From NCBI RefSeq assembly GCF_006345805.1, contig NC_042999.1, forward strand, positions 98,270,001 through 98,334,000: DNA of 64,000 nucleotides, written 5' to 3'. The stretch is from Octopus sinensis. Its lineage: Eukaryota. A program made the position numbers and the translations under genes. Of the stretch, positions 20,224-64,000 are shown piece by piece. Below the pieces are notes generated by a model that had not been told where the DNA came from, did no database searches, and was given only the letters and a program-made list of their open reading frames with translations. Each line of letters opens with the position of its first letter. The first letter of the stretch is position 1.

Positions 20224-20763
20224 TTAGATGTTATTTAAATCTAGAGAAAGTGTACGCCAATTTGTGAAGGCAAAAAAAATTTCGCTGTTAATAATGGGTT
20301 GGCCGGCTTTGATGATGAAGAAAATTTCATTGATACATAAAGAGCATTTCTTATTTCTACTATTGTATACGGGTGCAGATGTTAGTATTTCCCAATCTAA
20401 TTTAAAATCTATGTTCTTACTCTTGAGTTCCCAGATATACCTACTTAAACCCGTAGAGTTCATCCTATTTTTATTTTTAAAAGTATATCTATGAAAGTTT
20501 AGCCGTTGTTTTATACTATTTTTAGTTGCACCAATGTACACCCTGCTATTATATTGTGTATTTACAGTGCATTGGTAAACCACCTCTCTCCTCAGGCATT
20601 TATTACCAAACACACATTGATTCTTGCTTCTGCAATTGCAGCCATTAACAGATTGAGATTTAACCCTTGCAGAAATCCCCGTAGCCCTATTTCTGTTGAT
20701 ATTATTACACTTATTTTCACTACTACCCATGTTTATCTTTCTATCATTATAGAAGCAATCCAA
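20224..20763 (-). pseudogene. Penelope-like GIY-YIG endonuclease domain (Neptune-like)
   Basis: CNCRSKNQC..NKCL..VVYQC..VYIGAT..KQRLNFH..STGLSRYIWELK..CSLCINE. Confidence 0.9.
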
Positions 20764-20788
20764 TTTCTTGTTGTTGAAGGAGGAGATG

Positions 20789-20879
<91 letters not shown>

Positions 20880-22959: not shown

Positions 22960-25690
22960 CAGTGGGTCTTAACCTGAGGGGCGCGCCCCCTAGGGAGGCG
23001 TCAGTAATTTCCAAGGGGGTTGCGATCCCTTGAGAAAAAGCAGGAATTTCTCTAATTATATTCATTATTCCCTTAACGAGAGCATGGTCAAATAATGGGA
23101 GGTTTATGAAAAAATGCAAATGTATCGCCAAATACCTTTAGTTTTCTCATTCTACTATCTTAGCGCTGCTTACCATTTTCTGTACTTATTGACACCCCTT
23201 CATATCCCTCAAAACCCTCACTAATTCTGAATTGTAGCTGTAACAGTTGCCTTTACTTCGTAATTTTGTTTGTTTTTGTTTGTTTGTTTTTTTTTTTTTG
23301 TTTTTTGTTACAACAAGACTCGGGTTAAGAACCAGCTTCGATATTAATATCATATAAAGACAAACATATTTTTTGATATATTTAAAATAAGAAATATAAC
23401 AAAAAGTAAGTAATAGGTTCTACTAAAACACAGATTGGGAAAATAGAGAATTTTAGCAATAAAACAAAAATTTTTAATATTAAATGTTTATGTTAAAAAT
23501 ATAGTACATTTTTTTGTAAGAAAAAAAATTATAATATTAAGTCAAATATTAAACTATAATTCAGATTTAAATATTACAGAACGTACGAGGTAAAACAAAA
23601 AGCTATGCAAATTTTTTGCCTTTCATCCTTTCGGGGTCGATAAATTAAGTACTAGTTGCGTACTGGGGTCGATCTAATTAACTGGCCATCTCCCCCAAAA
23701 TTTCGGGCCTTGTGCCTAGAGTAGAAACGAATATTTTATTGTACAAATTTTTTGTATAATTTTCTTTTAATTTAACTTTTATTCCAAATTTTTTTGTTTT
23801 AATTTTTTTTTCAGAACTTTTTATTCCAACCATTCTAACTCGGGTTAGTTTTCTAACTTGGGCCTTGACATTACCTTACACATGCCTTATCTTTTGTTCA
23901 CATCTTTGTGTTGTCCCTTGCACATCAAATAATTCGTAATGTGTACGAAGAAACGGAAGTATCTTGACGAATATATTCGATTTGGATTCATGTCCCTCCA
24001 AAAGGGTGATACAGCAGTCCCCCAGTGTGTGATATGTTGCAAAACTTTGAACAATGATGGAATGCGACTCTCACGCTTGGAATGCCACTTGAGGACAACA
24101 CATCCTGCCCTTGCAGATATGCCCAAGGCATTCTTTGAAACAAAAAAAAAAATCCTTGACGCAAGTTATCTTCGACGGTAGTGAGGCATTTCGGCAACAA
24201 ACTTCAATGGTCATTGATTGCAAAGAGCAAGTAGTGCCATAACATCGGAGAGTCTCTCATCAAACCAAGTCTACTCCGTGCAGCAGAACTCGTTCTGGAG
24301 AAAGATAGTGCAAACAAACTTTCCCCGATTTCACTATCAAACGATACAGTCAAGGGAAAGATCGACGACTTGTCTTAAAACATCAAAAGTCAAATTTTCG
24401 ACCAAATAAGGGATCCTCTTGTTTTTGCCATCCAGCGTGACGAAATGACTGACATCGTTCAGTGTTCTCAGCTACTGGTATATGCTCGTTTTGTGTCAGG
24501 CAACTGTGTAAAAGAGGAAATGTTGTGCTGTCACCCTATGGATAGCTGTACAACAGCAGCAGCTATTTTTCGTGATGTATCAAACTTCTTTCAGGAAAAC
24601 CAACTTTCCTAGGATTCGGTAGTTGGTGTGTGCACTGAGGGAGCTCCAACCATGCTTGCTCTACAGTCTGGATTCATTACTAGGGTGAAAGAAAACATAT
24701 ATCTGTTGTAGGTACACACTGCATACTTCATCGTGAAGCCTTAGCATCCAGAACTTTAACTTGCCTACTGAAATGAGAAATTCCTGAACTTTGTTAAAGG
24801 TGGATCCTTAAACAGTCGTCTTAAAGGTAGAGCCTTAAACTGTTTTGTAAAGATATGGAATCTGAACATGAAGCATTGCTTTTTCACACGAACGTACGAT
24901 GGCCATTAAAGGAGAACATGCTTGGACAACTTTATGAACTACGAGAAGAAGTAGCAATACTTCTAGATTTGCTGCAGAAAGCAGATCTCCATGACAAGTT
25001 CCAGTCTGAAGGCTTTCATCAATCTCTAGCTTACCTGGTGGACATCTTCGAAGCGTTGAATGCTCTCGACCTTAAACTACAAGGGGAAAACATCAACATT
25101 CTCACGTACCACGACACCATTCGAAACATCATGGCCAAACTCGACCTCTAGAAATATTGAATTCAGTAGGGAAATACAGCCAGTTTTAGCTACTTGGAGT
25201 CTGCTCTCATTCACAGTAACTTTGATTCTGAGTTAAAGGAACAAATAATCATTCATCTAACTGACTTGAAAAAAGAATTCATCAGATTCTTCCTGGATAT
25301 AGATGAAAAGCGTGAAGCTTGGAAATTCATCAGGAGCTCATTTCAGTGTGAAGTGACTGGTGTTTTGGATGAGGTGCAAGAGGAGTTTCTTGAGCTGAAG
25401 TTCAACTCCCCAGCTAAGGAAGACTTCCAAGAATTGGATCTTGAAACCTTCTGGATTAAGTACCTTCCTGTTTACGCTCTGATCTCACACCATACCTTCC
25501 ATTATTCGGATTTTCGCTATGTTTGGATCTACGTATCTTTGTGAAGTTGCATCATCCATGCTCGATGCTGTCAAGACCAAGTACAGAAACAGGCTGAATG
25601 CTGAAAGGGACATATTGTGCACTCTCTGGCTTTCATCTATGCATTCAAGATCTTGTAGCTAAGAAGCAGTGTCAAGTATCTCACTAATAA
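22960..25690 (+). mobile_element. hAT Buster/Charlie-type transposon (left TIR plus transposase; right TIR not found)
   Basis: CAGTGGGTCTTAACCTG terminus after atttaaag; transposase downstream; a SINE fragment is nested at ~23615-23735. Confidence 0.6.
23939..25687 (+). pseudogene. Buster/ZBED5-like hAT transposase with stops and frameshifts
   Basis: KRKYLDEYIRFGF..PQCVICCKTL (BED-like), FAIQRDE, CTEGAPTM, HCILHREAL, LLFHTNVRW, LAYLVDIF, terminal KKQCQVSH*. Confidence 0.92.
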
Positions 25691-38219: not shown

Positions 38220-38819
38220 GTTTGGTTTCTGAGGACGGAGGTTGTGTCTGTGGCTCTCACAAAACCCTCACTGGACTTCGTAGATCGTTGAGATCGATAC
38301 AGTTAAACCTTTGATTAATTGATTCCTTTTACTAAAGAAGTCTTACGTCAGTCGAGCCATCGAAGTGACTGCAGTATAGTATTGTTACCGAAATCGACTC
38401 GAAATAGTGCCGTGATAGTTTTTAACATAAAGTAATATTAGCATTAGCAGTATTATCATAAAGTAGAATTAATTTGGCTGGCAAACCTAATCCCTCACTC
38501 GGTTTAATACAACCATCTGGGTCTTGAGTGCTTGTTGTAGAATCCATTATATCCATGCAATCAAACTAAATTATCCGTCTGAGTCTATCTCGATAGCTTA
38601 ATGTGTTGCTTCTTATTACATCTACCGTTGAGGTTTTGCCACTGATTGTTACTGTGTACAGGTGGGAGTGATTCTCGAGTCACAAAAAAAAAAATTCCCA
38701 TACATACATACATACATACATACATACATGCATACATGCATACATACATGCATACATGCATACATGCATACATGCATACATACATACATACATACATACA
38801 TACATACATACATACATAC

Positions 38820-39137
38820 TGTTATGACATGGGTATACACGTCTTGTGTAAAATGGTATTACACAAATAAATAGTCGGTTGTGGTTATCTAAAAAATAAC
38901 CTATCGCAGAAATATATGTTAAGACGGAACGCATTCCGTAATACTCGAACGTAGATGCGGCGTTCAGTATTGACTGTTCGACTGCCGACTGTTAAACTAA
39001 CACACGTCGAACTAACACGGTTAACCAACACGGTCGAACTAACACCATCAACTATGCTCCTGACAGTTCACTCGGTTCTTATTATTTATTGTAATCGGTT
39101 AGTCACGTGGGGGTGTTCAGGATTCTCCCATAAGACA
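38820..39137 (-). mobile_element. Possible solo LTR within a (TACA)n tract
   Basis: Imperfect inverted termini TGTTATG / CATAAGA(CA), ~315 bp, AATAAA on the minus strand near 39085; no clear TSD. Confidence 0.35.
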
Positions 39138-39217
39138 CACACACATACACCCCGCCACACACACATGCATACATACATACATACATACATACATACATAC
39201 ATACATACATACATACA

Positions 39218-39249
<32 letters not shown>

Positions 39250-39252
39250 CAT

Positions 39253-39505
39253 GGAGGACTTGGGTTTATAAGTAAATGCCTAAATGTCAGTCTTGATAAG
39301 CTTGGGTTTTCAGAAAAAGAAATCAACCAACTGATTCGCACATTACAAATACAAGCTGTAAGCGGAACAGTAAAACTATGCAAGTCTTTACTTAGGTTGA
39401 AATGTGACATTTTCGTTATCTACATTCCAAAGATGGAGCTTTGTATCTTTGATAGAAACCAGCTTCTTCTTCAGAGGAAGAATTTAAATGATTAAATACA
39501 GAAGA
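39253..39505 (+). mobile_element. R4/Dong-clade RLE retrotransposon 3' fragment A
   Basis: GGLGFISKCL..LDKLGFSEKEINQLIRTLQIQAVSGTVKLCK plus 3' UTR. Confidence 0.8.
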
Positions 39506-39527
39506 TACACACACACACACACACACA

Positions 39528-39570
<43 letters not shown>

Positions 39571-39581
39571 GACAGACATAC

Positions 39582-39874
39582 ATGTTCAGGTTTATACCTG
39601 TAATTATGGGGCCCTGGGAGATGTAATATACTGCCTAAATGCCAATTTTGAGAAATTAAGCTTCTCAAAACCAGAAAGAAGAAAGCTAATTCGAGGGTTA
39701 CAGATCCAATCCATCACTGGAACTGTAAAAATCTGTAAAACTTTCCAGATTTAAATCTATATGAGCATGTCTAGATATGCAACTATATGCATGAGATTAC
39801 GTACATAAAACATACAAATCTGCACATTCATACACACATACATACATACATACAACATACATACATACATACAT

Positions 39875-39935
<61 letters not shown>

Positions 39936-40067
39936 CATACATACATACATACATACATACATGCATACCTTGTTGTTGGTGTTGAAATTCCAATGAAGGA
40001 GCCTTGGATCTAGGTTAGAAACCGGTTTTTCTTTATTGGCAAGAAATCTTGAAATAACTGGATAATG
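39582..40067 (+). mobile_element. R4/Dong-clade 3' fragment B
   Basis: FRFIPVIMGALG..FSKPERRKLIRGLQIQSITGTVKICKTFQ plus a 3' UTR containing a microsatellite. Confidence 0.8.
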
Positions 40068-40158
40068 ACATACATACATGCATGCATGCATGCATACATA
40101 CATACATACATACATACATACATACATACATACATACATACATACATACATACATACA

Positions 40159-40191
<33 letters not shown>

Positions 40192-40202
40192 GCATGCATA
40201 AA

Positions 40203-41000
40203 AATACATCGACGGACGACAAATATAAGTTGTGCAACATTAAAACTGAAGACATCAATCACGTTATGGCCAACTGCGAGAAAATGTCTTCTACAATAGA
40301 TATTTATCTTCTTATGAGGCACGATACAGTAGCCCGAACAATCTGAAAGAGAATTAGAAAAAAAGAAATTACCTTCTGGACACTAATGTGGTTAGGAAAA
40401 TACAAGGGAAAGAAAAAATATGTGGGCTCTTGATAAGTAGGTTGCAAATGCGCTACCCAAGGTAGATTTATGTCTATTATTATTGAGCAGCATGAGACGT
40501 ACCAACCCACCTGGAGCAAATTATGACTAATCTTGAATTCTTGGGGAGAGAATGCAATTCATTAATTTATACGCGACAAATGATCCCGATATCTGGGACA
40601 ATACAAAATCTGCAAAACTTTCTAAAGATTTAAAGGATTTTTAAGGCCAGATGCTTTCTTTCAGATATTTGCTACCAAGTAGGTAGCCAGTTAAAATTTA
40701 CTCTAAATTAAAAAGAGGAAAAGAACACACACACACACACATACACTCACACGTACGCACGCGTGCACAAGCACGCATATACACACATACATACATACAT
40801 ACATACATACATACATACATACATAGCTAGAGTATTATATAATGAAATCTATAGACAGGATAATCCTATGGAAAGAAGTATTAGAAGTTATAATGACGTG
40901 CAGGGCTTAAGCACACATAATAGGAAAGAATCCTGATGGAATGTCCTTGTCAGATCATGACTTCAATAAAATACAAGCATCATAGCCGAGACGTAACGAT
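40203..41000 (+). mobile_element. R4/Dong-clade fragments C (40203-~40725) and D (40826-~41000)
   Basis: KLCNIKTEDINHVMANCEKMS..LMRHDTVARTI (CCHC region), SGTIQNLQNF end; ARVLYNEIYRQDNP..*WNV. Confidence 0.7.
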
Positions 41001-41374
41001 TTAAACAGAAGAAAAACTCTGTGTATAATAGTTAAATCAGTTACCCTGCAGTTTTCAGCATAACGTCATAGATTAGTGGAAAAGATACCATTATAGCGAA
41101 TTGATGAGAAATATGCAGTTACCCAGTCTAGACTGTAGATTGAGATTTTTACCAATTATTATTAACACACTTGGTTACGTGAGTAGCTACGTCAGAACCA
41201 ATCTTGAGTAGCCGGGATTCGCAAAACTGGACAAAATATGTCAATGCGAAAGATTATAGCTGCAAGCTAGCAAAGGTACCATTATACATACATACATACA
41301 TACATACATACATACATACATACATACATACATACATACATACATACATACATACATACATACATACATACATA

Positions 41375-41810
41375 CTGGTGGAATATTCAGGCTGGATATT
41401 GTTGTTTTGGACAGAGGGGCAAAGGTATGTACCATCATAGAGGTCAGCTGCCCTGCAGATATAAATATCTCTTTGAAAATCGAAGGAAAAGAGGATATCC
41501 GTGGACAATTGCTTCGAAACCTCCAGCTTCTATATCCAGACTATGAATTTATATTCATACCGATAATAATTGGAGCACTGGGTTTTGTCAGTAAATGCTT
41601 TAAGTAGAAACTAGATAAACTGGGATTTCCAGAAAGAGAAATCGAGCACCTAATTCGTACATTACAAGTGCAATATGTGAGTGGAACAATAAAAATATGC
41701 AAGACTTTTCTCAAGTTCCAAATGTGAATTTGTCTGTGAGCCTTGTATATTTGTTGGAAGCCGACTCCCTCTTCAGTGGAAGATTTATAATAATTAAAAT
41801 ATAGAAGAGA
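41375..41810 (+). mobile_element. R4/Dong-clade 3' fragment E (RLE domain plus 3' UTR)
   Basis: [54 protein letters not shown]. Confidence 0.88.
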
Positions 41811-42399
41811 TATACATACAAGACAGCCGATGTGAGCTGCTGCATACTTGGTGTGAGAGACTATTTATCGAATAGTCTCCCAAGTTAAATATGCGACTGC
41901 TTCCGCGTTAATATCGCAATTACCCGCCTTGTTAATAATTGGTTATTCGTTTAATTACATTCATTGAGGGGACTATTATCTCAAGAATGTGGTGGTGTTT
42001 GTCAAGATCTGGTATTCACCTTGCGCTGAGCTGCTGCAGACGGCATGGTTGTACACAACAGCATCAACCGAACCGGACTTCCAGAAGTTTAACATCTGAT
42101 AAAATTGCATAAACATTCGTGTCGATATGAAAACTTGTATGTGTTCTTATTAAGCTCTACACAAGCAATAACATTTATACTTGCATGCATGTGCACATAC
42201 ATACGTACAAACATAAATGCTTATGTGCCTACATACGTACATGCATACATACATACATACATACATACACGCATGCATACATCTGTGTATACCTGCTTAC
42301 ATGTGTGCATATATGCAAAACATGTTGTCTAAATTTTGATGAAAGCGCCTAGTTTCTGGGTTAGACATCGGCTTTTCCTACATTGGTGAGAGATTCGAA

Positions 42400-43775
42400 A
42401 AATAAATCTAGAAGAAAATATATATTCACAGATCTTGTCAGTGTCAACAGTGACGCTGGTATAATCTGTTACGTGAAGAGATTGAAAAAGAAGCATAAAG
42501 CCTGTCCAGACGGCTTTTGTGTGCCATACCATGTCATTCAAACAAGACTTAATGAATCTACTGGAAATATTAACATATCACGCCTATGCTCGTCAACAAT
42601 AATAATGATTTCAAATTTTGGCACTAGGCCAGCAATTGCTGGGAGGAGACAAGTCGATTACATCGACCCCAGTGCTCAACTAGTACTTATTTTATCGATT
42701 TTAAAAGGATGAAAGGCAAAGTCAACCTCAGCAGAATTTGAACTCAGAACATAAAGACAGGCGAAATACCTATTTCTTTACTACCCACAAGGGGCTAAAC
42801 ACGGAGAGGACAAACAAGGACAGACAAACGAATTAAGTCGATGATTATATCGACCCAGTGCGTAACTGGTACTTAATTTATCGACCCTGAAAGGATAAAA
42901 GGCAAAGTCGACCTCGGCGGAATTTGGACTCAGAAGGTAGCGACAGGCGAAATACCGCTAACGTCTCTGCCAACTGGTCACCTGGTCAACAGTGCTAATA
43001 ATGCCATCATGGAATTATAGGAAGAACTCTGAGTGTTACAACTATTACACACAAATCAAGGAAAGCTGAAATAGTCTACATAATAGAAATTTGAAAGAGA
43101 AACTGTCAGCAGAAAGTTATGCATGGGTATACATCCCGCAACCCATCCCGTCTCACTGAGAAAAATACGCTTTTGATACTCAAGAGCATCAAATAACTAC
43201 TAAATATATGACCAGCAAGAGAGATAAGGAACTCCTCTAAACTTTCACGTTGCGATAGAACATGTCGACTGTACTTTACTGGGGTGGGAAATAGCCCCAC
43301 ATCATCAGCAGTTGTCCAAAAAACGTCTGTAAGTTACTACTTACACATAAGACATGACATTGTTGCTAAAACCATTTACAATACTATTTGCAAGAAAGCT
43401 TTTTTCTGACGGAAAAACAAAAGCATACCAGACCCAGAATATATTCAAGTCTTTAAAAATAAGAATTACTGGGAGAATATTCCAATAAAGATAGGTTGCA
43501 AAAAATGCTGATTATTACAGAGGCTGGCTACCCGGCAGATATAAAACTGAGGGAAAAGAGAACTATAATGAGAAAATGTTAATCTTATAGCCAAGCTGTG
43601 TACTTTCATTTGTATTTATTTTCAGTTGTGCATATAGCTGTATAATATGAGATTTGCATAAAAACTTAGAAAAGATGGGATTCTCAAAGAAAGAATAAAG
43701 CTTGCTAATTCGCGTCCTTCTCCAAATAAAAGTGATTAGTGGTACAGTGAAGACTTATAAAACATTCCAAGAATT
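42400..43775 (+). mobile_element. R4/Dong-clade fragment F, interrupted by SINEs
   Basis: QKVMHGY, QEHQITTKY, CDRTCRL..HIISSCPK..IRHDIVAKTIY, SGTVK. Confidence 0.75.
42600..42985 (-). mobile_element. SINE nested within a SINE of the same family
   Basis: 15-bp direct repeat gacaggcgaaatacc at 42756-42770 and 42942-42956 brackets a copy carrying the Tx1-like tail. Confidence 0.8.
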
Positions 43776-44064
43776 CTTCGTTTTGTTCACTGGAATGAAT
43801 ATATGCACACAACCGTATGTGCATATGTTCATTCCATATGCACGTTTATAAAAATGTAAAGATTCGCGTACATTTATGTACATGCACATCCACTGCATGA
43901 GTGTAAGTTTATCCCCATCCCATGCACCTACATGAATGCACACATTAACTCGTTGACATATTTTCAAATCCCGCGAACTGTTTCGACTCAAACAAAAGAG
44001 CCTGGTCACGTTGTTAGTCATTAACTGGAATTATACAGAGGGGGAAAAAAAGTACAAAAACACG

Positions 44065-47174: not shown

Positions 47175-47274
47175 AAATTCTCCTTCTGGTGTTGTGACCA
47201 AATTAATTATTGTGTGTGAAAGCCAAATCTTCAAGTGAAAGGGCAATTGATTGAAAAAGTTTCTTAAAGAAATC

Positions 47275-48552
47275 ATGAAGACGAATATCAACATTGATGT
47301 TTTCCAGTGTGGAATATGCCAAAAATACTTTTCCGACAGCAATAGCTTAAAGGTTCACATGGAAGTGCACCCGGTCAAGAAACTGTACTTTTGTGATGTA
47401 TGTGGCATATCCTGTGTTGAAGAATATCTCTTGAATAACCACATGAAAATTCACACAGGAGAAAGACCGTATATTTGTGATATATGTGGTAAAGATTTTG
47501 TGAAAAAATCTCAGTTGAAGAAACATTCAGAAATACACAGCAGTGACAGCCTCTTTCACTGTGATATTTGTGGCAAGAATTTTGTCCATGCATCTTCTTT
47601 AAAGAAGCACATACGAGTGCATACTGGAGAAAAACCGTTCCAGTGTAATGAGTGTGGGAAAGAATTTGTGCAGAATTGTCATTTGAAACAGCACCAGAGA
47701 CTTCATACTGGTGAGAAACCATTTCATTGTGAATTTTGTGGCAAAGACTTTGTACGAGGTTCTGATTTTAAGATCCATACTCGAAGACATACTGGAGAAA
47801 AACCATTCATTTGTAATATATGTGGGAAAGATTTTGTTGATGGATCTTCATTGAGAAGTCACATACGAATTCACACTGGGGAGCGACCATATCATTGTGA
47901 GATATGTGGTAAGGATTTTGTAATTTCCTCTTCGTTAAAGAAACATATAAAAACTCATACTGGAGAGAAATTTCACTATTGTAAAATATGCAGAAAGAAA
48001 TTTGTTCAAGCGTATTCTTTGAAAATCCACATGAAAGTTCACACTGGCGAAAGTGCATTTAAATGTGAAGTGTGTGGGAAAGATTTTCAGGAAAGTTATG
48101 ATCTGAAAATGCATATGAAAATTCACACTGGTGAGAAAACTTTCCACTGCGATACTTGTGCTAAGGACTTCTTGCACGAGTTCTCGTTTAAGAGCCACAT
48201 GAAAAAACACGAAGGAGAAAAACCAGTTGAAAGTGAGATGCGTGTAAGTGATTTTTACCAAATGTCCAACTTAGCGAATCATATGAGTAAATATACGAAG
48301 ACTAAGATTTTCCATTGTGAAATATGTAGGGACGATTTTATGGAAGAATCTAGCTTGGCAAAGCACATAAAGATCCATACAGATGAAAAGCCATTTCAAT
48401 GTAATTTATGTGGAAATGACTGTGTTGAAGCATCTATTTTGAAAATTCATATCCAAGGCCACTTGGAAGATAAACCTCTCATTTGTAAAACCTGTGGAGA
48501 TGAGTTCCTCTTTGAATGTGACTTAGAAAAACATGTTGAAATGCATGTATGA
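47275..48552 (+). CDS. Tandem C2H2 zinc-finger protein (425 aa; 15 repeats, 14 intact), no effector domain
   Basis: Uninterrupted ORF of CxxC-x12-HxxxH repeats with TGEKP-type linkers; first ATG at 47275 (the track start at 47251 is TTG), with an in-frame TGA immediately upstream of 47251. Confidence 0.93.
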   Translation: MKTNINIDVFQCGICQKYFSDSNSLKVHMEVHPVKKLYFCDVCGISCVEEYLLNNHMKIHTGERPYICDICGKDFVKKSQLKKHSEIHSSDSLFHCDICGKNFVHASSLKKHIRVHTGEKPFQCNECGKEFVQNCHLKQHQRLHTGEKPFHCEFCGKDFVRGSDFKIHTRRHTGEKPFICNICGKDFVDGSSLRSHIRIHTGERPYHCEICGKDFVISSSLKKHIKTHTGEKFHYCKICRKKFVQAYSLKIHMKVHTGESAFKCEVCGKDFQESYDLKMHMKIHTGEKTFHCDTCAKDFLHEFSFKSHMKKHEGEKPVESEMRVSDFYQMSNLANHMSKYTKTKIFHCEICRDDFMEESSLAKHIKIHTDEKPFQCNLCGNDCVEASILKIHIQGHLEDKPLICKTCGDEFLFECDLEKHVEMHV

Positions 48553-52378: not shown

Positions 52379-53130
52379 CAGTGTGGACAGTATTCATTGC
52401 CATGATGACTGTCAGGAAAAAGGAAAATTTTCTGAGATATATTTGTCAAATTTGGATCAGTTTATCTTCATGAGATTTTCTGTAGATCTCACTCAATGAA
52501 CCCACCTTTGGCATCGATGAAAGCCTCCATGTGACCACTGAACTGGTCACTAGCCTTTGTCACTATCTCCTGTTTTATGCCCCCGAAGGCCCTGGTAATC
52601 CTGGCCCTCAGTTCATCCTTCATTTTGCAGACGGATTTGTTGGTCTCTCATTCCACGACACCCTACACAAAAAAGTTAAGTGGGTTGCAGTCAGGCGAGT
52701 TGGGAGGCTAAATGTCAGGTGCTGTATGTTTGAAAAAATTCTTCAACAGCCAGGGTTTTTTGGCTGCTGTGGCAAATTGTAGATTCTTACTGCCACATGT
52801 ACAGCTGCCGGTCCGATACAGAGCTTCACAACTTTGCTCAGAATGTGGATATAGCCATTAGTGTTCAGCCAGAGGCTCTTAGGGAAGAAGTTGGGTGGCA
52901 TAATGTTACCTTCACTGCTGACAACACTGAAGATAATGATTGTCGCTGGAAATTTCATCTGCATGACGCTGGGCATGTCCTGGGATGAGACAGTAAGCCA
53001 CCTGTTGTTCTGGAAGTTGATATTCTGGTTTTGGTAGAAACTCTTCTCATTGGAGAAGAACCACACCATACTTGGTTCCAGCAGGTGTTTTGACTTGTTG
53101 AACAGCTTTTTGATGTGCTCAGAAATGATC
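52379..53130 (-). mobile_element. Tc1/mariner (maT/DD37D-like) transposon 3' portion
   Basis: WFFSNEKSF..NFQNNRWL..KFPATIIIFSVVSSEGNIMPP..YIHILSKVV and SPDCNPL; TA|CAGTGTG terminus at 52377-52385. Confidence 0.85.
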
Positions 53131-53575
53131 AGAGAAACTCGAGAGAAGGGCTGCAAGGAAAAACAAGAATCCTACCGGGTCCGGATTGTGCCCCCTATAA
53201 CCATGGCTTTTATGCCCTTAGTAGCCTAATAAACTACTAAATGACCCAAAAAGAGCTAAGCTGCTAATATGGTCATCTTCAGAGACATGAAGGATGCATG
53301 TCGTATGTATATTGTTTGGGTTTTTTTAACTCAATATAACAGACACATCACAAATCCTTTCAGGGAGATGATCCTACTCAATACATAGAAAAAGTGTAGG
53401 TAGAAACTCCATAAGGCTTACCTGGTGCAATCTATGGACACATAAAGGTGAAGCAGTATCAGAAGAAGGTTATTAGGGAAAGTAGTCTTTGTGTGTGGCA
53501 GATGTATATGTACAATAAACACCAGAAACGTAAGAAGTAACAGATAGCTTCCATTACCTAGGTGACCAAGTCAGC

Positions 53576-63262: not shown

Positions 63263-64000
63263 CCCCTTAATGAATTATCCCAAGTTTACTCGTGCATCGC
63301 AAATGTATCTTTCTAGAACCAGACGAGTATACTCGGGTAAATTAACTTGTAATTTTAGCACTCAAACGAGTTTATTTGTTTTGTGTCGTTTCATTTTTGA
63401 GCAATCATGAATTTACTCATGTTGTTTAAAAAAAATTTGTATTTTTTCATTTGATGGATTTGGCTATCTGGAATGCTTATGTTTTGTATAAAGCATCTTT
63501 GGAAACTTCAGCTTCTGCTATGAAACCATTGAAATTTAGAATGCAAATAATCACCAAGATTATTGAAAAATATAGGCCCTTATTGCCTCCCACAAAACCA
63601 GGAAGACCATCATTGACCCTACATCCAACAAGATTTGCCCCAGCTGGTCACTTTCCCATGGAAATACCACAATGTGATAAGAAAAAGAACCATGCAAGAC
63701 AGTGTGCAAAATGCACAGAGAAGAGAGATGCTAAAGGAAAGAAGATTCGAAGATACATGTGTGATGTCTGCAAAATAACTTTGTGTGTAACTTGTTGTTT
63801 TAAAAATTATCCTTCTAAATAAACTATCTCATTTTTAAAAACTTTTCCTTTGATTTAAAAGCAATACATCTTATAAAAAATCGAAGATAGTTAAGCTATA
63901 TGTATTTTTTCAATGTCCAAATTAATTCGATTAAATCCAAATGAGTAAAAATACATTTTAATTTCTATAATAAAAAATAAAGGAAACAAAATTAAAAAAA
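63263..64000 (+). mobile_element. Internally deleted piggyBac element (left end joined to transposase C-terminus); runs off the window
   Basis: TTAA|CCCCTT terminus with gagtatactc subterminal palindrome; ORF 63451-63822 DLAIWNAYVLY..FRMQII..HFP..RQCAKC..YMCDVC..LCVTCCFK (piggyBac cysteine-rich domain). Confidence 0.85.

Follow-up and report, generated by a model that had tools for sequence, protein, structure and literature searches.

Co-oriented fragments of R4/Dong-like retrotransposons within (CATA)n repeats of an octopus genome

Why do several retrotransposon fragments, all facing the same way, lie between short tandem repeats within a few kilobases of octopus DNA? The fragments occur in a 64,000-nt stretch of Octopus sinensis DNA (NC_042999.1, positions 98,270,001 to 98,334,000 of the forward strand; hereafter the window), for which an earlier note, made from the letters alone, described six fragments (A to F) of R4/Dong retrotransposons, elements with a restriction-like endonuclease (RLE), all on the plus strand. 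A protein profile built from seven database relatives and run on both strands of the window recovered A to E and a fragment that had been missed, G; these six RLE-type fragments are all on the plus strand and retain 3' parts only of the R4/Dong open reading frame (ORF). F is weakly supported. Beyond A to E and G, the profile found no further RLE-type fragment in the 64 kb on either strand at E<1, in agreement with the claim that there are none elsewhere. We consider it probable that this island consists of dead, 5'-truncated copies from at least five R4/Dong-like families, which lie in one orientation within (CATA)n repeats genome-wide, likely through recognition by their own Myb-like domain and RLE.

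Repeats at element junctions across the genome

First-look candidates in the 2.72-Gb genome numbered 34,816 for family E, 14,391 for B and 14,597 for A, sets that overlap and are not copy numbers. We analysed the best-scoring loci per family together with two control families of long interspersed elements (LINEs) taken from the same window, which by their motifs are putatively CR1-like and RTE-like. Once duplicates and loci from the window itself had been removed, the R4 set stood at 136 loci, comprising 94 with a resolved 5' junction, 31 unresolved and 11 dropped for near-identical flanks; some of the latter merely had pure-repeat flanks, and dropping them is conservative. When (ACAT)n or C-containing (YA)n within 30 nt upstream of the 5' junction was scored, the repeat was in sense at 58 of the 94 junctions and in antisense at 4, the sense junctions being divided among E (21/32), A (12/21), B (13/19), C (9/17) and G (3/5). 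A strict 12-mer criterion alone gave 51 sense against 2 antisense junctions. The control LINEs showed 2 sense and 3 antisense repeats at 43 resolved junctions from 57 loci (Fisher p 4e-11), and distal windows 300-700 nt further out contained 22 sense and 11 antisense repeats in 266. As truncation points vary among copies, the repeat upstream does not belong to the element itself; nor is it merely a tail made by the reverse transcriptase (RT), because it precedes many different truncation points. For the RTE-like control family (L204-L233), 5' junctions were often seen to adjoin (TA)n (~7/19 by eye).

At the other end of the elements, 97 of 118 located 3' ends enter a sense repeat and 11 an antisense one, with 7 more having no locatable end. 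The next five bases are exactly CATAC at 20 of 42 E ends and 13 of 23 B ends, most others being one or two changes off, and CATA is the commonest last unit of the repeat before a 5' junction (20/42, p 0.008). These junction phases would fit insertion at a cut between neighbouring CATA units, staggered by zero or by a multiple of four.

Co-oriented stacking is common genome-wide, and the island in the window is an extreme case. Further R4 ends in 119 R4 loci (~3.2 kb each) were on the same strand 25 times against 4 on the opposite strand; a co-oriented neighbour was present in 23 loci and two such neighbours in 2. The 57 control loci had no same-strand and one opposite-strand neighbour. A possible tandem array was observed at G000:C7:63458032-63459200, with four A/E-type 3' ends at ~340-bp spacing, 71% each.

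We also searched for empty sites. Paired flank matches were obtained for 5 of the 82 copies that had both junctions. L006 was clean, with a (YA)n tract at the corresponding position in unoccupied copies of the repeat that hosts it. L020 was partial, and L023 lies at a B 3' junction. No empty alleles were seen in four public runs, in which contigs break at repeats and paralogues swamp the output. Overall, strand-specific targeting by several R4/Dong-like families, which the earlier note had proposed for (TACA)n, is well supported by the junction sequences, and the target is better written as (CATA)n tolerant of ACAY/(YA)n. The random orientation that the earlier note named as grounds for refutation is not what the junctions show. 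The accompanying idea that empty sites already hold the repeat is borne out thinly, by L006 and by the internal tract of family B, described below, taken as an empty reference.

The island in the window and family B

The island comprises the following features, with UTR standing for untranslated region, LTR for long terminal repeat and SINE for short interspersed element.

38699..38819, plus strand: (CATA)n tract of ~30 units
38820..39133, strand unassigned: passenger repeat, putatively solo-LTR-like, with TG...CA ends and 7-bp inverted ends
39135..39250, plus strand: (CA)n/(CATA)n tract before A
39251..39506, plus strand: copy A of an E-related family, final 50 codons and 3' UTR
39507..39581, plus strand: (CA)n ending in cagacatac, spacer between A and B
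39582..40068, plus strand: copy B, ORF end and 3' UTR with internal (ACAT)n (39824-39967) and terminal piece T
40069..40200, plus strand: (CATA)n tract, spacer between B and C
40201..40726, plus strand: copy C of an older family, zinc knuckle, RLE end and 3' UTR, with an internal deletion near 40373
40727..40824, plus strand: (CA)n/(CATA)n tract, spacer between C and D
40825..41281, plus strand: copy D, degenerate RLE region, ~67% to B, without the last codons and 3' UTR
41285..41372, plus strand: (TACA)22, spacer between D and E
41375..41812, plus strand: copy E, RLE core, ORF end and 3' UTR, then a two-unit ATAC repeat
41821..~42080, plus strand: piece H, probable 5' UTR of a B-related element, immediately following the repeat of E
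42180..42310, plus strand: degenerate (CATA)n tract before F
42345..42590, plus strand: piece F, weak RT-thumb remnant
~42590..42990, strand unassigned: high-copy SINE-like repeat between F and G
~43100..43790, plus strand: copy G of an old family, linker, zinc knuckle and RLE end

Each of copies A to E is immediately preceded by a tract of (CATA)n or of (CA)n-catac, as the earlier note described. Some of its details need correction. B does not end at ~39830, since the (ACAT)n tract at 39824-39967 lies in its 3' UTR and is followed by the 101-nt piece T (39968-40068). The "six mutually divergent" families are nearer five, because A and E have a homologous 3' UTR. With their closest relatives in the genome, A, E and B share 84-92% identity and C, D and G 67-76%, so the stack likely accumulated over a long time. 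Contigs of a more distant organism (runs X9 and X15) cover D, the 3' flank of E, and G, indicating that these insertions are old. The deletion in copy C is recent or polymorphic, as it is missing from a contig of run X20 that has ~143 more bases at 40373.

F matches the RT-thumb region weakly (pairwise protein E 0.04-0.075, DNA E 0.012) and has no profile match. Because F is collinear with G across the SINE, the two are likely one copy, with F as its upstream half; G matches the profile at E 3e-14 to 7e-8, and its 3' end in the window lacks a clean repeat. H resembles the 5' UTR of B (67%, E 5e-11) under permissive DNA scoring only; it had no match under default scoring or at the protein level, and an N-terminal ORF was not detected in it. 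Pfam searches with five window peptides returned only a weak zf-RVT match, for C, and a search of PDB sequences with the RLE region returned nothing meaningful. A strict-cut-off protein search with the knuckle of C gave only the self-match, and a DNA search was used for C instead.

Family B carries the target repeat inside its own 3' UTR. In 22 of 32 B copies, the ORF end is followed by a conserved segment and 8-205 nt of pure (ACAT)n, after which comes T, which is homologous to the A/E 3' UTR; of the other copies, 4 were flagged as interrupted, 4 are without T and 2 are 3'-truncated. Among the 29 best T matches, 15 continue from a B body and 14 stand alone, and a sense repeat lies upstream in 26 and an antisense repeat in none. 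T as an independent SINE was considered and rejected: it is the terminus of B. Three copies (L033, L042 and L119) have other elements in the internal tract, and L032 is only a repeat variant. The view that each insertion regenerates its target appears to hold, and B additionally carries the target in its RNA; it would thus add target with every copy and often truncate within it.

Another element was observed in the same (ACAT)n tracts at L119:3469-3960 (oriented), and also in L009, L043, L115, L136, L157 and L357. It has the opposite polarity and ends in (TATG)n on its own strand in 8/8 matches, and its C-terminus is presumably RTE-like, judging by a motif.

The passenger repeat at 38820-39133 has a fixed length and an apparent 5-bp target duplication, and its 314 bp split the first two repeat tracts. 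Its family gave 40/40 scored matches, most near full length, and is not repeat-targeted (5' flank sense 1/19, antisense 1/19). With no repeat bias and no match in the R4 library, it was rejected as a non-autonomous R4 partner; no tRNA or Rfam identity was found for it. Elsewhere, the window has a 433-aa open frame with tandem C2H2 zinc fingers (47251-48549), and open frames at 20227-20820, 24831-25541, 52746-53171 and 63430-63819, which by their motifs look like GIY-YIG (Penelope), hAT, mariner and piggyBac remnants, respectively.

Proteins, relatives and known target-specific elements

Intact members of the clade that contains E, B and G (1149-1165 aa) have one ORF with RT, a CCHC knuckle and C-terminal RLE motifs (Pfam RVT_1 and zf-RVT). 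Their conserved N-terminus was modelled as three helices with best matches to SANT/SLIDE/Myb folds (Z at most 7.0), which does no more than suggest a Myb/SANT-like domain; a Foldseek search with this model found nothing at E<=0.001. An N-terminal profile matches B copy L117 (E 1e-12) and the Bombyx protein P0107 (E 4e-12), and a C2H2 pattern was absent in 9/9 ORFs. No intact ORF of a (CATA)n family was found among 20 long-flank E loci or in 38 matches to a full-length query (40 candidates scored).

In an RT tree of 43 rows, which included no named R4-clade, NeSL or HERO reference, E, B and G cluster at 99/97 within a 27-row clade (100/100) that includes an Argonauta protein, GAB1597890.1. This clade groups with the insect RT proteins P0107 and P0119 (95/87) and with (TAA)n-flanked elements. 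The octopus genome also has three young (TAA)n Dong-like families (L122-L130 and L364-L375) with open frames reaching ~1200-1344 aa, whose 3' ends have (TAA)n in 21/21 and ACAT in 0/21 cases; they fall outside the 27-row clade, with RT ~35% identical. A metagenome scan returned 80 loci, 38 of them with an ORF end. Of these, 31 lie closer to the TAA families or to the Bombyx protein, with AAT repeats after the ORF in 20, and 7 are nearer the E/B/G clade; 6 of the 7 were placed in a second, quicker tree, all inside that clade (SH-aLRT, the Shimodaira-Hasegawa-like approximate likelihood-ratio test, 100). L234, L236 and L237, with ORFs of 1153-1165 aa, have (TTAC)n at their start. The ends of L235 and L236 run into (CTTA)n, which is phased in the same way as CATA. 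No such repeats are present in L238 and L285, which appear to stop short of the element ends. As CTTA is found in two sub-branches, it may be an older state than CATA.

How do these families compare with described elements? Most RLE clades are target-specific (PMC4640811). Dong elements target TAA, Waldo ACAY and Mino AC (PMC3812793), and R4/Dong elements have an N-terminal Myb/SANT domain, with (TAA)n used in most insects, molluscs and cnidarians (PMC7998251). Dong-R4 elements are abundant in octopus genomes, with five recently active families reported in O. vulgaris, and we found neither target sites nor a split into TAA and CATA families in the octopus 'Dong-R4' annotations (PMC13282606, PMC8967140, PMC9115989); PMC5678591 and PMC5389967 added nothing on targets. 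Our literature search found no R4 element targeting CATA or CTTA, with Repbase, Kojima and Fujiwara 2004 and supplements outside its scope, so that a prior description is possible.

The families described here resemble Dong (Bombyx Dong, DongAg, snail DongBg and ostracod Dong1/2; PMC3812793, PMC7998251) in co-oriented microsatellite insertion and in a single ORF with a divergent N-terminal Myb/SANT-like domain, no zinc finger, RT, CCHC knuckle and RLE. By the single-ORF domain set, the Myb/SANT-like N-terminus and the insertion into microsatellites, they would belong to R4/Dong. They differ from Dong in targeting (CATA)n, or (CTTA)n in relatives, instead of (TAA)n, in forming a separate clade and in the target carried by B's 3' UTR; the ends of A, B, C and E run into CATAC, not (TAA)n, so they are not Dong in the strict sense. 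Waldo and MinoAg1 have essentially the same target repeat, ACAT/ACAC (PMC3812793), but possess an apurinic-type endonuclease and, according to a cited title, belong to the unrelated R1 clade. Pfam detected no such endonuclease domain in 5/5 full-length proteins of our clade, which places it outside Waldo/Mino, and the shared target is convergence. The clade's best match among solved structures, and its closest predicted fold, is R2 (R2Bm and R2Tg; phmmer E 2e-25; Foldseek E 2e-33, TM 0.58). These sequence and fold matches suggest that the chemistry of target-primed reverse transcription is likely shared, although R2 has N-terminal zinc fingers and a 28S ribosomal DNA target, and identity is 16-18%.

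Assembly of the island and its meaning

The junction patterns suggest recognition and cleavage of (CATA)n by the element's endonuclease as the enzymatic basis. The Myb-like domain and RLE would recognise the repeat and nick it on the TATG strand, between CATA units, to prime reverse transcription. Every insertion would leave repeat on both sides, which slippage would then lengthen, and B would supply a third target per copy, its RT often halting in the internal tract to produce solo 3' tips. The stack would have been built over a long time, with C, D and G arriving first and A, B and E later. The clade may prefer (CWTA)n, with CTTA and CATA separated by a one-base shift.

The true target might instead be short, a single CATA unit or a pair, with slippage extending the tracts afterwards, so that the elements build microsatellites rather than seek them out. 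Post-insertion expansion is real, given the length range of B's internal tract, and several 3' junctions retain only GACATAC. However, inserts lie in pre-existing tracts, namely a SINE's internal tract (L006) and B's own (L033 and L042), and we regard this explanation as unlikely; it would also alter the minimal target, not the strand-specific preference.

We give somewhat less credence to a loose endonuclease combined with an RNA ending in CAUAC repeats, which would prime only where a nick exposes the complementary TATG strand. The fixed CATAC phase after E and B ends could be an RNA-encoded tail, and the truncation of 14/29 T matches in B's internal tract suggests that repeat pairing matters. 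Yet some 3' ends pass straight into (CA)n, and the Myb-like domain is conserved in the clade. RNA pairing and recognition by the endonuclease are not mutually exclusive.

Passive pile-up, in which random insertions persist in neutral DNA rich in repeats, or come to light there through deletions, is very improbable: the genome is microsatellite-rich and the island also contains a non-targeted passenger and a SINE, but such a process cannot yield the 58 versus 4 strand bias, the fixed phase or the 2/43 in control LINEs, and the passenger itself shows no bias.

Several observations weigh against targeting of (CATA)n by the elements' own enzymes. No sense repeat was scored at 36 of the 94 5' junctions, deletion or SINE insertion explaining some of these by eye, and a clean empty site was recovered for just 1 of the 82 copies with both junctions. 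A comparison of downstream with upstream repeat types gave rho 0.26 (p 0.07, n=51), and the downstream repeat may be either target or tail. The loci were chosen as the best-scoring matches rather than sampled at random, and alignment followed masking of the repeats, a procedure that can bias junction calls towards repeats; the controls went through the same pipeline. Neither an intact nor a young (CATA)n copy was recovered, and target duplications are hidden by the repeat. The tree position of C is that of a single long-branch row, and the four (CTTA)n contigs belong to two series of records with similar names and may represent one host.

What appears to be new here is a tetranucleotide target variant within the known R4/Dong class, together with its (CTTA)n relatives and the internal target of B. 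More tentatively, the elements could form a widespread, undescribed R4 sub-clade specialised for (CWTA)n, with a one-base switch between CTTA and CATA and intact members suitable for assay, in which a family that evolved in this host, with the target in its 3' UTR, supplies landing sites of fixed orientation by the thousand and accounts for an appreciable fraction of the genome's (CATA)n microsatellites. Site-specific RLE retrotransposons are models for the evolution of target choice and are in use for gene insertion. The targets TAA, CTTA and CATA in one group, of which two differ by one base and two co-occur in the same genome, would offer a natural series for mapping the specificity domain, and an element that carries its own target would provide a concrete route to the birth of microsatellites and of co-oriented element islands.

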